Shown here: in pieces, positions 42,427 through 44,406 of the stretch
Numbering within the stretch: position 1 is the first letter of the stretch
Layout of the letters: every line of letters starts with the position of its first letter
Source: Escherichia phage teqhad
Sequence record: NC_054933.1
Length of the DNA: 64,000 bases
Direction: 5' to 3' (one strand)
Program-made: the position numbers and the translations under genes
Notes under the pieces: model-generated
Database searches by the model: none
What the model was told of the DNA's origin: nothing
Seen by the model: only the letters and a program-made list of their open reading frames with translations

Positions 42427-42563
42427 CGTTTTGTGAAAAAATTTTTAAAAAGTTTTGGGGAATTCTAGGGCAGGAAGGGGAAATCAAAGGATAGGATAAT
42501 ATATTATAAAGGGTAGAAACTAAATGATGTCTAGAGAGGCCCGGAAAGGCCTAGATACCAAAA

Positions 42564-42587
42564 AGCCCCAACCTTTCGGCTAGGGCT
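42564..42587 (-). terminator. GAAA-loop hairpin downstream of the IP-like gene
   Basis: Minus-strand RNA AGCCCUAGCC-GAAA-GGUUGGGGCU followed by U-run. Confidence 0.55.
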
Positions 42588-42594
42588 AAGAATG

Positions 42595-43068
42595 TTATTT
42601 GATTTGTTTAGCAGACCAAATGCGATCTTTAATAATTTTTTGGATGTCTTCAACATACTCTAGGTCATGAGCATGTGGATTATCTTTGAAACTATGAGCT
42701 CGCGCAAGTTTCTGGCCTTCGGTCTTAATTATCAAAAGTTCTTTAAGAATTGCTTCATACCTAGAGATAATTCCTTTAGCAATATTTTTTTCTTGTGCTG
42801 CTTTAGGGTCAGCCTTAGGAGCAGGTTTACCTGAAGCCTTTGCAAAAGCAGCTCCAGTAGCAACTAAACTTTTCCAGGCCATACTAACTGCATTTCCCGT
42901 AAATCCTTCTGCTTTCATGTCGCGAGCAAATTGGAATCGTGATTCATCAGAAGCATCTTTATAGGAATATTTACCCGCTGCAATGGCTGCTTTTGCGACA
43001 GCTTGAATTTCGGTGCTAAACGCTTCATTTAACACCGCTTCATTTAAAAATTGAGTATATGATTTCAT
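42595..43068 (-). CDS. internal-protein-like protein with CTS-like N-terminus
   Basis: 157 aa; MKSYTQFLNEA resembles the CTS MKTYQEFIAEA; Ala/Lys-rich. Confidence 0.6.
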   Translation of the reverse strand: MKSYTQFLNEAVLNEAFSTEIQAVAKAAIAAGKYSYKDASDESRFQFARDMKAEGFTGNAVSMAWKSLVATGAAFAKASGKPAPKADPKAAQEKNIAKGIISRYEAILKELLIIKTEGQKLARAHSFKDNPHAHDLEYVEDIQKIIKDRIWSAKQIK

Positions 43069-43104
43069 CTTATTTCCTGTTTTAATTTGTAGATTTAATA
43101 TACT

Positions 43105-43112
43105 TATTTATA
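43105..43112 (-). promoter_or_regulatory. late promoter TATAAATA
   Basis: Minus-strand TATAAATA about 37 bp upstream of the IP-like ATG. Confidence 0.5.
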
Positions 43113-43118
43113 CTAAAA

Positions 43119-43142
43119 AGCCCCAACCTTTCGGCTGGGGCT
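43119..43142 (-). terminator. GAAA-loop hairpin, near-identical copy of the 42564-42587 element
   Basis: Minus-strand RNA AGCCCCAGCC-GAAA-GGUUGGGGCU followed by U-run. Confidence 0.55.
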
Positions 43143-43458
43143 AAGCCTTGCGGCAACCTTGTCGGGGTTCCACCTGCTAAGGCAAGTGTTTGTACGAAAC
43201 GCCGGGATTCGAACCCGGTTATCAAGCAGTTGACGCTACTCAATATTTTTAAAAGGCCATATCTCGACCATATCCGAACGTTCCGTCAAAAACGCTACTC
43301 GGCTTACGGCAAAGATATTTCCTCGAATCGATAATTCGGTGCGCCGTTTCTGCTGTGATGTAAGGGGATATTAACAAATCATAAAGATTTATTAAGACCA
43401 GTCCTTACTCAGGGAACATCAGTCCGACGTCTTGCCGGTAGCGACCCGGCTTCTTGTT

Positions 43459-43534
43459 TGGTCGAGGCAGTAGGGATCGAACCTACGACCCAGGACTTAG
43501 AAGGTCCTTGCTCTTCCTTCTGAGCTATGCCCCG
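43459..43534 (-). tRNA. tRNA-Arg (anticodon UCU)
   Basis: Manual fold: acceptor CGGGGCA/UGCCUCG, anticodon loop CUUCUAA, T-arm GUAGG-UUCGAUC-CCUAC, CCA encoded. Confidence 0.8.
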
Positions 43535-43538
43535 TAAT

Positions 43539-43614
43539 TGGGGTGACCGATGGGAGTCGAACCCATGACTACGAGAATCACAATCTCGAGTTCTACCAAC
43601 TGAACTACGGCCAC
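43539..43614 (-). tRNA. tRNA with anticodon GUG (His by anticodon; C73 present, no encoded G-1)
   Basis: Manual fold: acceptor GUGGCCG/CGGUCAC, D-stem GUUC/GAAC, anticodon stem CGAGA/UCUCG, loop UUGUGAU, T-loop UUCGACU, CCA encoded. Confidence 0.6.
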
Positions 43615-43728
43615 ATTAATACCTACTCCAACAATCAAGATGTCTTCACACGAAATTAAGAGAAGAGTGATCAGTTCAACCCCTATAATCGCGTCAAGTA
43701 GATATTAATGTGACAGTTGTCACAAATT

Positions 43729-43803
43729 TGGCGGACGTGATAGGATTCGAACCTATAACCAATCGCTTAACAGGCGATCGCTCTGCCATTGAGCTACACA
43801 TCC
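43729..43803 (-). tRNA. tRNA-Asn (anticodon GUU)
   Basis: Manual fold: acceptor GGAUGUG/CACGUCC, anticodon stem AUCGC/GCGAU, loop CUGUUAA, T-arm AUAGG-UUCGAAU-CCUAU, CCA encoded. Confidence 0.7.
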
Positions 43804-43807
43804 AAAT

Positions 43808-43894
43808 TGGTGGGGAGTGGTGGAGTCGAACCACCCGAGTCGCAATGACAATGGATTTACAGTCCACACCGCTACCTCTACGGGATAACTCCCC
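43808..43894 (-). tRNA. tRNA-Tyr (anticodon GUA), long variable arm
   Basis: Manual fold: acceptor GGGGAGU/ACUCCCC, anticodon stem GUGGA/UCCAU, loop CUGUAAA, T-arm GGUGG-UUCGACU-CCACC, CCA encoded. Confidence 0.65.
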
Positions 43895-43907
43895 TTAATT
43901 CTTAATT

Positions 43908-43982
43908 TGGTGGCCCTGGGTGGAATTGAACCACCATCTGGCGATTATGAGTCGCTTGCTTGAACCTTCCAGCTACAGGGCC
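43908..43982 (-). tRNA. tRNA with anticodon CAU (Ile-type as in T4, or Met)
   Basis: Manual fold: acceptor GGCCCUG/CAGGGCC, anticodon loop CUCAUAA, T-arm GGUGG-UUCAAUU-CCACC, CCA encoded. Confidence 0.65.
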
Positions 43983-43983
43983 T

Positions 43984-44059
43984 TGGTGCTGATTGACGGA
44001 ATCGAACCGCCGACCTTCTCATTACAAGTGAGTTGCTCTACCTACTGAGCTAAATCAGC
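43984..44059 (-). tRNA. tRNA-Thr (anticodon UGU)
   Basis: Manual fold: acceptor GCUGAUU/AAUCAGC, D-stem GCUC/GAGC, anticodon loop CUUGUAA, T-loop UUCGAUU, CCA encoded. Confidence 0.75.
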
Positions 44060-44064
44060 AAAAC

Positions 44065-44154
44065 TGGCGGAGGCGATAGGATTTGAACCTATGAGTCGCC
44101 GGAGCGACTGCCGGTTTTCAAGACCGGTGCATTAAACCACTCTGCCACGCCTCC
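44065..44154 (-). tRNA. tRNA-Ser (anticodon UGA), long variable arm
   Basis: Manual fold: acceptor GGAGGCG/CGCCUCC, anticodon stem CCGGU/ACCGG, loop CUUGAAA, T-arm AUAGG-UUCAAAU-CCUAU. Confidence 0.75.
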
Positions 44155-44156
44155 AG

Positions 44157-44230
44157 TCTCCATACAAGGATTTGAACCTTGGACCTCCTGATCCCAAATC
44201 AGGCGCTCTACCAAACTGAGCTACACGGAG
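44157..44230 (-). tRNA. tRNA-Pro (anticodon UGG), CCA not encoded
   Basis: Manual fold: acceptor CUCCGUG/UAUGGAG (G-U pairs), anticodon stem CCUGA/UCAGG, loop UUUGGGA, T-arm CAAGG-UUCAAAU-CCUUG; 2 nt from tRNA-Ser. Confidence 0.7.
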
Positions 44231-44240
44231 TAAATTAAAT

Positions 44241-44314
<74 letters not shown>

Positions 44315-44319
44315 AAATT

Positions 44320-44406
44320 TGGTGCGAGAAGTGGGACTCGAACCCACAAGGAAATCATTCCGCAGCATTTTAAGTGCTGTGCCTTTACCAATTTGACCAT
44401 TCTCGC
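44320..44406 (-). tRNA. tRNA-Leu (anticodon UAA), long variable arm
   Basis: Manual fold: acceptor GCGAGAA/UUCUCGC, anticodon stem CAGCA/UGCUG, loop CUUAAAA, T-arm GUGGG-UUCGAGU-CCCAC, CCA encoded. Confidence 0.75.

Follow-up and report, generated by a model that had tools for sequence, protein, structure and literature searches.

Downstream of the tRNA genes of Escherichia phage teqhad (NC_054933.1) lies a short region that almost certainly carries the orthologs of two small stable RNAs of phage T4, rnaD (species 2 RNA) and rnaC (species 1 RNA), folded as modelled below. The stretch analysed, referred to as the window throughout, is 64,000 nucleotides (nt) long; its nearest records are Tequatrovirus phages, e.g. 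REP1 and SA21RB, and its source is a T4-like phage. Ten tRNA genes occupy 43459–44406 on the minus strand (ARAGORN and Rfam), the last being tRNA-Arg(UCU) at 43459–43534, and the 328 nt of interest (43131–43458) follow directly on its 3´ side on the same strand. A sequence-only reading of the window had singled out these 328 nt as a structured non-coding region and had suggested that they might be the counterpart of the two small stable RNAs that T4 encodes near tRNA-Arg.

Pairwise alignment with T4 (NC_000866) recovers the same order throughout, i.e. tRNA-Arg, rnaD (T4 71053–71171), a 6-nt spacer, rnaC (T4 70908–71046), a conserved 3´ trailer and an intrinsic terminator (Table 1). By local blastn, rnaC is 97.8% identical to its T4 counterpart, with 139 of 139 nt aligned, and rnaD is 85.6% identical over 118 nt. 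The same stretch is labelled rnaD/rnaC in phage RB6 and “species 1/2 RNA” in X03016. The suggested T4 counterpart is supported by this colinear homology, by the identity to T4 and by the RB6 and X03016 annotation. Like T4 rnaC (T4s001), the teqhad copy follows rnaD and is followed by the same trailer and the same terminator; it carries three substitutions, one of which turns a U-A pair of hairpin P3 into U.G. T4 rnaD (T4s002) has near-identical 5´ and 3´ cores and likewise starts 1 nt after tRNA-Arg, but the tip of the central hairpin has diverged, the closing pair of hairpin H1 is G-C here and A-U in T4, and position 28 is an A here, which breaks a U-A pair of the closing stem. In other genera, too, where rnaC follows the CCA end of a tRNA, it has a leader of AAnnA type in front of it, like the GAAUUA spacer of teqhad.

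Table 1. Features of the rnaD/rnaC region in window coordinates; helices and loops are those of the predicted folds.
Feature	Position	Strand	Basis or remark
rnaD (T4 species 2 RNA) ortholog, ~120 nt	43338..43457	minus	T4 alignment; begins 1 nt after tRNA-Arg CCA
rnaD 5´ hairpin H1, GCCGG-GUCGCUA-CCGGC	43434..43450	minus	closing pairs co-vary: G-C / A-U / G.U; C-G / U-A
rnaD closing-stem 5´ strand (G27-G33) and internal-loop strand GACUGA	43419..43431	minus	pairs with 43339-43346; invariant in 24 sequences
rnaD variable central hairpin, holding a second, non-conserved GGACUG	43356..43411	minus	base pairs co-vary
rnaD 3´ strand: loop GAAA and closing stem CGGCG-C-AC, 1-nt 3´ overhang	43339..43350	minus	RNAalifold consensus
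AU-rich spacer GAAUUA between rnaD and rnaC (rnaC 5´ leader)	43332..43337	minus	T4 alignment
rnaC (T4 species 1 RNA) ortholog, 139 nt	43193..43331	minus	NC_000866 boundaries; X03016 sets each end 1 nt inward
rnaC P1 5´ strand (C2-G8), acceptor-like stem, 7 bp	43324..43330	minus	pairs with 43195-43201
rnaC long arm (positions 14-73), tip loop UUGACG at 43284-43289	43259..43318	minus	14/17 pairs compensatory
rnaC A-rich single-stranded joiner UUUAAAAA (positions 79-86)	43246..43253	minus	AAAAU core in 21/21 homologs
rnaC P3 hairpin, 10 bp (positions 87-112), loop CGUCAA at 43230-43235	43220..43245	minus	9/10 stem pairs compensatory
rnaC T-arm-like hairpin CCGGG-UUCGAAU-CCCGG (positions 114-130)	43202..43218	minus	middle stem pair co-varies U-A / G-C
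rnaC P1 3´ strand (C131-G137), abutting the T-arm; then U138, ACA	43195..43201	minus	pair counts
Conserved 3´ trailer	43143..43192	minus	core AACACUUGCCUUAGCAGGUGGAACCCCGACAAGG at 43157-43190, unique in window
Intrinsic terminator of the tRNA/rnaD/rnaC unit	43114..43142	minus	10-bp stem and U tract; T4 equivalent “pot. terminator” in X03016

The genes themselves are already known. The fold of rnaC, the architecture of rnaD with its cores and variable tip, and the modular spread of the elements go beyond Rfam and the sources read. In Rfam 15, only the 10 tRNAs pass in the window and there is no family for either RNA; nothing inside the region matches at the gathering threshold, the best match being tRNA-Sec with 16.4 bits against a gathering score of 47. 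The region is carried by more than 800 phage records, most of which are blank at this place or show “hypothetical protein” coding sequences (CDSs).

The fold of rnaC was derived from 21 distinct homologs of at least nine genera (alignment A6) by RNAalifold and explicit pair counts. The homologs come from Tequatrovirus, Karamvirus, Kanagawavirus, Winklervirus, Gelderlandvirus, Mosugukvirus (Pectobacterium phage PM2) and Marfavirus, as well as from the unclassified Citrobacter phage Ursula and IMG/VR contigs. The consensus comprises 48 modelled positions, 46 of them standard pairs and two of them U.U positions of the terminal helix P1. Across the alignment 92.9% of the cells are paired, and compensatory change, with both sides altered, is seen at 28 of the 48 positions. 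None of 500 shuffled controls reaches any of these measures, and sliding the partners by 1–3 columns leaves 38–49% pairing. rnaC is accordingly modelled as a four-way junction, in which the 5´ and 3´ ends are predicted to form an acceptor-like stem set directly on a T-arm.

Changes in P1 and in the adjoining helix P2 illustrate the pattern. In P1, A4-U135 is replaced by G-C in most genera and by G.U in PM2. The two U.U mismatches are found in 20 of the 21 sequences; in PM2 both are U-A and C2-G137 is A-U, resulting in a perfect 7-bp P1 that is followed by U-CCA. P2 pairs A9G10G11 with C76C77U78, with an exchange of A-U for U-A in PM2. No nucleotide separates the T-arm from the 3´ strand of P1, and U138 occupies the discriminator position, such that a 7-bp stem, mismatches included, is contiguous with a 5-bp T stem and a 7-nt UUCGAAU loop. 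Together, P1 and the T-arm would reproduce the acceptor/T-arm coaxial stack of tRNA. The T-loop reads UGCAUGC or UGCAUCC in some genera, and the nucleotides after U138 are ACA here and in most genera, and CCA in PM2 and the Marfavirus group. A covariance model built from the alignment (R1) finds a single copy of rnaC in the window at 169 bits; as an independent gauge of tRNA-likeness, it can also be aligned over its full length to genuine tRNAs from other loci, at 13–25 bits (E = 5e-5 to 0.1), the best of these matches being a tRNA-Ser.

The D and anticodon arms of tRNA are replaced in rnaC by two hairpins, the long arm and P3, with loops (UUGACG and CGUCAA) that are exact reverse complements of each other. 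All six pairs hold in 20 of the 21 sequences (99% complementary), and PM2 retains a GACG/CGUC core. In Marfavirus-type sequences the loops read UUGGCG and CGCCAA, i.e. the A46-U99 pair is changed to G-C. The complementarity likely represents a kissing loop, likely rather than proven because it draws on one independent compensatory event. P3, the kissing helix and the distal stem amount to ~22 bp and the proximal long arm with P2 to ~19 bp, similar lengths that make an intramolecular contact with the two arms side by side plausible in the model; the contact may instead be that of a dimer. Pattern scans of IMG/VR and a metagenome scan for more divergent rnaC returned only Marfavirus-, PM2- and Karamvirus-type sequences that had already been collected, and 19 of 20 matches in the metagenome pattern scan were chance.

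rnaD is a separate module, composed of a 5´ hairpin and a long irregular hairpin, and is not tRNA-like. The RNAalifold consensus of 24 distinct homologs has 22 pairs, seven of them compensatory. The 5´ core GAAACCGGGUCGCUACCGGUAAGUCGUCGGACUGAUGUUCCCUG and the 3´ core AUCACAGC(A/U)GAAACGGCGCAC are invariant, and between them the tip of the central hairpin exists in at least four unrelated versions (window/T4, T2/TH44, C6 and A7_1 types). The fold includes an asymmetric and invariant internal loop, GACUGA opposite GAAA. Beside it, the pair U40-A107 is UA in 15 sequences, AU in six and UU in three, flanked by G38A39 and G108A109. These tandem GA dinucleotides resemble those of a kink-turn, which is a lead only; by eye, the bulge geometry is atypical and the loop bases are all invariant. 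The exchange of C-G for U-A in H1 comes from A7_1, a phage of the Vequintavirinae. A reading of rnaD as a tRNA-like RNA with an ACCA end was considered and rejected: the loop of H1 does not have the character of a T-loop, H1 is not enclosed by the closing stem, and several homologs have CA for the terminal CC. Short pairings are possible by eye between the rnaD H1 loop and GUAGCG motifs of rnaC and between GUUCCCUG of rnaD and the trailer; all positions involved are invariant.

The elements on which the sequence-only reading had based its description fared differently. The T-arm-like CCGGG-UUCGAAU-CCCGG and the GCCGG-N7-CCGGC hairpin were both recovered by regular-expression search, the former in rnaC and the latter as H1 of rnaD. 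Two perfect hairpins of 5 bp and 7 nt occur in the 328 nt where ~0.3 are expected, and both are beyond chance because their helices co-vary in relatives; on the larger scale, conserved folds with compensatory changes were obtained for rnaC and rnaD alike. The folding energy of the full region lies at z = –6.1 relative to shuffled sequences, and that of each RNA alone at z = –3.8. The direct GGACUG repeats are present as two copies (43420–43425 and 43399–43404), but their significance did not survive, with 18 repeated 6-mers in the region against 12 ± 4 in shuffles. As a feature, the repeat was dropped: it is at chance level, and the second copy is not kept, T4 having GGAAUUG. The label “IP-like” for the neighbouring gene is not backed by any family match; the gene belongs to a PHROG of unknown function.

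The same reading had found no convincing open reading frame (ORF) and had been unable to fold a canonical tRNA, and both statements stand against a good part of the public annotation. Many GenBank records annotate small proteins here; “hypothetical protein” entries lie under the match in dozens of records, and many homologs contain stop-free stretches of ~50 codons. However, the only ORFs that overlap the region in teqhad are TTG-started and of 42 and 53 amino acids (aa), the frames do not stay open in T4, T2, PG7, Proteus phage ABTNLPp2 and PM2, and stops and 1-nt indels set the homologs apart. Substitutions come in compensating pairs, and the RNAs are made in T4. We consider a protein-coding role to be almost certainly wrong; selection acts strongly on RNA secondary structure and not on any reading frame.

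Equally hard to sustain is the notion of rnaC as a degenerate or unusual tRNA gene, which derives from annotations made with ARAGORN. The program draws a 94–95-nt class-II-like cloverleaf over rnaC positions 46–139, called “tRNA-Lys(ttt)” in phage G2133 and “tRNA-Met(cat)” in PG7, and the weak tRNA-Sec match in Rfam could be taken in the same sense. Yet ARAGORN is silent in the window, the “anticodon” varies between phages, and the competing four-way junction is strongly supported. The cloverleaf itself (46–53 with 131–138) has mismatched D and anticodon stems and is refuted by covariation: on 16 homologs, it pairs 52% of the cells, shows no compensatory change and has one acceptor pair broken in 11 of the 16. 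The tRNA calls over rnaC are a prediction artefact that arises because rnaC has P3 in the position of the variable arm, a T-arm and a pairable 3´ strand, as class II tRNAs do. In fact, P3 lies 1 nt upstream of the T-arm, exactly where class II tRNAs have their long variable arm, which explains both the ARAGORN calls and the choice of tRNA-Ser as the best match of R1. In contrast to class II tRNAs, rnaC has no D arm, anticodon arm or anticodon. Within 43131–43458 neither ARAGORN nor Rfam calls a tRNA, and the failure to fold a canonical one is explained by the T-arm, which is part of no more than a tRNA-like top half.

Public annotation of the locus is inconsistent. The calls of tRNA-Lys(ttt) at 973–1066 (MK327928) and tRNA-Met at 1254–1348 (KJ101592), in locus coordinates, are spurious and lie over the 3´ part of rnaC, and the names rnaC and rnaD appear in few records only (RB phages, T4 and T2L). 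In T-even phages and PG7, the 3´ strand of P1 also has an 8-bp alternative partner in ACGGAACG (43194–43201 with 43279–43286; rnaC 131–138 with 46–53). This pairing takes in part of the UUGACG loop and is 87.5% pairable across 16 homologs, without any compensatory change. Chance similarity of sequence may explain it, or else an alternative conformer specific to a lineage.

Comparison of the loci indicates that rnaD, rnaC and the trailer are independent modules, usually situated within phage tRNA arrays. In the Dhakavirus phages VR5 and C6, rnaD is joined straight to the trailer without rnaC, and in Gaprivervirus TH44 an inserted ORF stands between rnaD and the trailer. Conversely, rnaC occurs without rnaD in Karam-, Kanagawa-, Winkler-, Gelderland-, Mosuguk- and Marfavirus phages, usually between tRNAs (tRNA-Trp, rnaC, tRNA-Gly), and Erwinia phage IT22 has the trailer core alone, between tRNAs. 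In Escherichia phage A7_1, a member of the Vequintavirinae and thus outside Straboviridae, rnaD directly follows a tRNA (1487–1593 of the extracted locus, L029) with intact cores and a short, different tip, which argues for horizontal transfer of the module between unrelated coliphage tRNA arrays. Searches for cellular and plasmid relatives found none in 5,426 E. coli genomes or in the PLSDB plasmids, and the rnaD core had no match in GTDB genomes. Phages T2, NR1 and ESh16 have a 116-aa ORF (phrog_3355, unknown function) between tRNA-Arg and rnaD (L026 151–501 in T2; L003 1681–2031; L027 151–501), and the 5´ end of rnaD can therefore not always be produced by 3´ processing of tRNA-Arg.

Within the trailer, a core of ~38 nt (GAACACUUGCC..AGCAGGUGGAACCCCGACAAGG) shows no variation between T4, Dhakavirus, Gaprivervirus and Erwinia phage IT22; it persists where rnaC and/or rnaD are absent, and it was found in 733 phage records. 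In the extracted loci of relatives the corresponding stretch lies at 823–907 (L008), 831–915 (L009), 1320–1390 (L013) and 901–947 (L012). The core is better conserved than the terminator after it. A processing site is one possible role of the trailer; another is that of a third RNA element with a function of its own. Directly after the rnaC terminator, where T4 has no such gene, teqhad carries an insertion of ~555 bp relative to T4 (42560–43113, minus strand). It contains a T4-late-promoter-like TATAAATA (43105–43112), a late gene in the form of a 157-aa ORF (42595–43068; unknown function, phrog_2280) and, at 42560–42586, the terminator once more in near-identical form (compare 43115–43141); downstream of this second copy the alignment with T4 resumes. 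The insertion looks like a gene cassette recombined in at the terminator repeat. Within the tRNA array, the gap between tRNA-Asn and tRNA-His measures 114 nt (43615–43728, minus strand); the other spacers are 1–13 nt.

As for maturation, rnaD and rnaC would be co-transcribed with the ten tRNAs and excised by the host tRNA-maturation machinery. RNase E-type cleavage of the AU-rich spacers, together with RNase P action at the 5´ end of rnaC P1, would set the RNAs free; 3´ trimming would come next and, for rnaC, possibly addition of CCA, as for T4 tRNAs without an encoded CCA. Both RNAs would then accumulate as stable RNAs late in infection. In T4, the tRNA cluster is thought to be one ~1.75-kb transcript that ends after species I (PMC2330249), and both RNAs behave as late RNAs, with RNAC visible on a Northern blot (PMC9697503). 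All 21 rnaC homologs have U or A immediately 5´ of C2, and X03016 starts species 1 at C2. The length of species 1, which we take to be 140 nt, would be that of C2-U138 with CCA; RNases III, E and P presumably take part in its processing, and some T4 tRNAs are said to need tRNA nucleotidyltransferase. That the region encodes the rnaD and rnaC orthologs together with the conserved trailer and the terminator, matured as outlined here, is highly probable.

The function of the two RNAs is a more tentative matter. The reading that we favour, although we think it less likely than not, is that rnaC works in trans by imitating the acceptor/T-arm half of tRNA and rnaD by interaction with the host. rnaC would occupy or divert a host protein that reads this half, either an enzyme of tRNA-end processing or turnover or a defence enzyme that targets tRNA, and rnaD would act through its invariant loop core on a host-specific partner. 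Two findings lend this indirect support. The tRNA regions of T-even phages act as anti-defence loci (PMC13096335). When the T4-like phage BW1 was adapted to E. coli ECOR34, the sole mutation common to three lines mapped to rnaD, and the adapted lines gained virulence (relative bacterial growth measure 0.17 to 0.98; PMC12685909). In a bolder version, to which we would give less credence, rnaC is the founding member of a phage-specific class of “half-tRNA” decoys, with a body locked by the kissing loop that presents a processed, CCA-bearing acceptor/T-arm minihelix, and rnaD is a second, independent host-range RNA, both being passengers of anti-defence tRNA arrays. Such a decoy would sequester a host enzyme which monitors or attacks the 3´ ends or elbows of tRNAs, e.g. 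a CCA-modifying toxin or a tRNA-turnover nuclease.

Several observations weigh against a trans-acting mimic. The 3´ tail in teqhad is ACA and not CCA, and a tRNA-like 3´ end would therefore need repair. The UGCAUGC T-loop of some genera cannot form the canonical T-loop motif, the mature ends differ by 1 nt between two T4 annotations, and the kissing loop, with its single independent compensatory event, could be intermolecular instead. On laboratory hosts, T4 remains viable when its tRNA region is deleted. T4, which has rnaC, is not spared by a Septu system that cleaves tRNA-Tyr (PMC13096335), and at least that defence is therefore not countered. Finally, a review of T4 traces the species 1 and 2 RNAs to the tRNA region, calls both “unknown” in function and lists no characterized trans-acting T4 regulatory RNA (Uzan and Miller, 2010; PMC3014915).

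Other explanations place the function elsewhere. rnaD, rnaC and the trailer may be cis-acting modules for processing and stability, which order the cleavage of the tRNA precursor and shield its 3´ end and of which the stable RNAs are by-products. They are always co-transcribed with tRNAs and in T-even phages are found close to or at the 3´ terminus of the operon; the trailer core is independently conserved and occurs within tRNA arrays as well, and structured 3´ ends with short overhangs resist exonucleases. We nevertheless think this unlikely: rnaC is internal to the array in several genera (again between tRNA-Trp and tRNA-Gly), and a processing signal would need far less than its ~140 nt, its 46 conserved standard pairs and its loop-loop contact. 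Furthermore, the RNAs accumulate late (PMC9697503), and a point mutation in rnaD alters host-specific virulence (PMC12685909). Alternatively, the two may be base-pairing regulatory small RNAs (sRNAs); the authors of both studies refer to them as regulatory RNAs (PMC9697503; PMC12685909). Single-stranded segments would then pair with phage or host mRNAs and control their translation or decay, in keeping with loop sequences that are invariant and stems that vary. Candidates for such segments are, in rnaD, the loops GUCGCUA and GACUGA/GUUCCCUG and, in rnaC, the A-rich joiner. The two most conserved loops of rnaC are, however, complementary to each other and not free, and a homology search, which is blind to short antisense target sites, revealed no similar sequence in E. 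coli genomes or plasmids; we rate this reading as rather unlikely.

A further role would exploit the tRNA-like end itself, with rnaC as a chargeable adaptor that receives CCA, is aminoacylated and makes a non-decoding delivery, in tmRNA-like ribosome rescue or aminoacyl transfer. The 7-bp acceptor stem, the discriminator U, the CCA encoded in the PM2 and Marfavirus types and the canonical G53-C61 pair with the UUCGAAU T-loop in most lineages are what such an adaptor would have. But no conserved identity element was found, the 3:70 pair drifting between A-U, G-C and G.U, the stem has two U.U mismatches in all sequences but one, and most lineages encode ACA. There is no tag ORF and ARAGORN calls no tmRNA, which leaves the adaptor a very unlikely candidate.

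The likeness of rnaC to tmRNA is one of architecture. The tRNA-like domain of tmRNA is likewise a top half, with an acceptor stem on a T-arm and the anticodon side replaced by other helices, and 5´ processing by RNase P is expected in both. The differences are that the 3:70 pair is A-U in teqhad and not G3.U70, that rnaC has neither tag frame nor pseudoknot ring, and that similarity in sequence or Rfam is absent, as is any ARAGORN tmRNA in the window. The mascRNA, the Y-RNA-like YrlA and the tRNA-like structures of plant viruses are examples of an acceptor/T-arm-like module that recruits tRNA enzymes or partners without decoding, which is what the trans-acting proposal would have rnaC do. Their Rfam matches in 43000–43720 are at chance level and fall on true tRNAs or a bare T-loop, and rnaC differs from these mimics in being a predicted four-way junction with putative kissing loops that ends in its acceptor stem.

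In conclusion, the finding at this locus is in itself ordinary, being the correct recognition of known genes. The two T4 RNAs, species 1 and species 2, have a history that reaches back to the 1970s. They continue to be entered as “function unknown” and lack an Rfam family, with the consequence that hundreds of records contain spurious small ORFs or pseudo-tRNAs in their place. The comparative model, with its tRNA top half that carries CCA in some lineages, its covarying kissing loop, the invariant core of rnaD and the modular spread in tRNA arrays, which takes in at least nine genera as well as a phage of the Vequintavirinae, makes a 50-year-old open question experimentally tractable. The question gains weight from the findings that phage tRNA clusters counter tRNA-targeting immunity (PMC13096335) and that virulence on a natural E. 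coli isolate can increase through one mutation in rnaD (PMC12685909).

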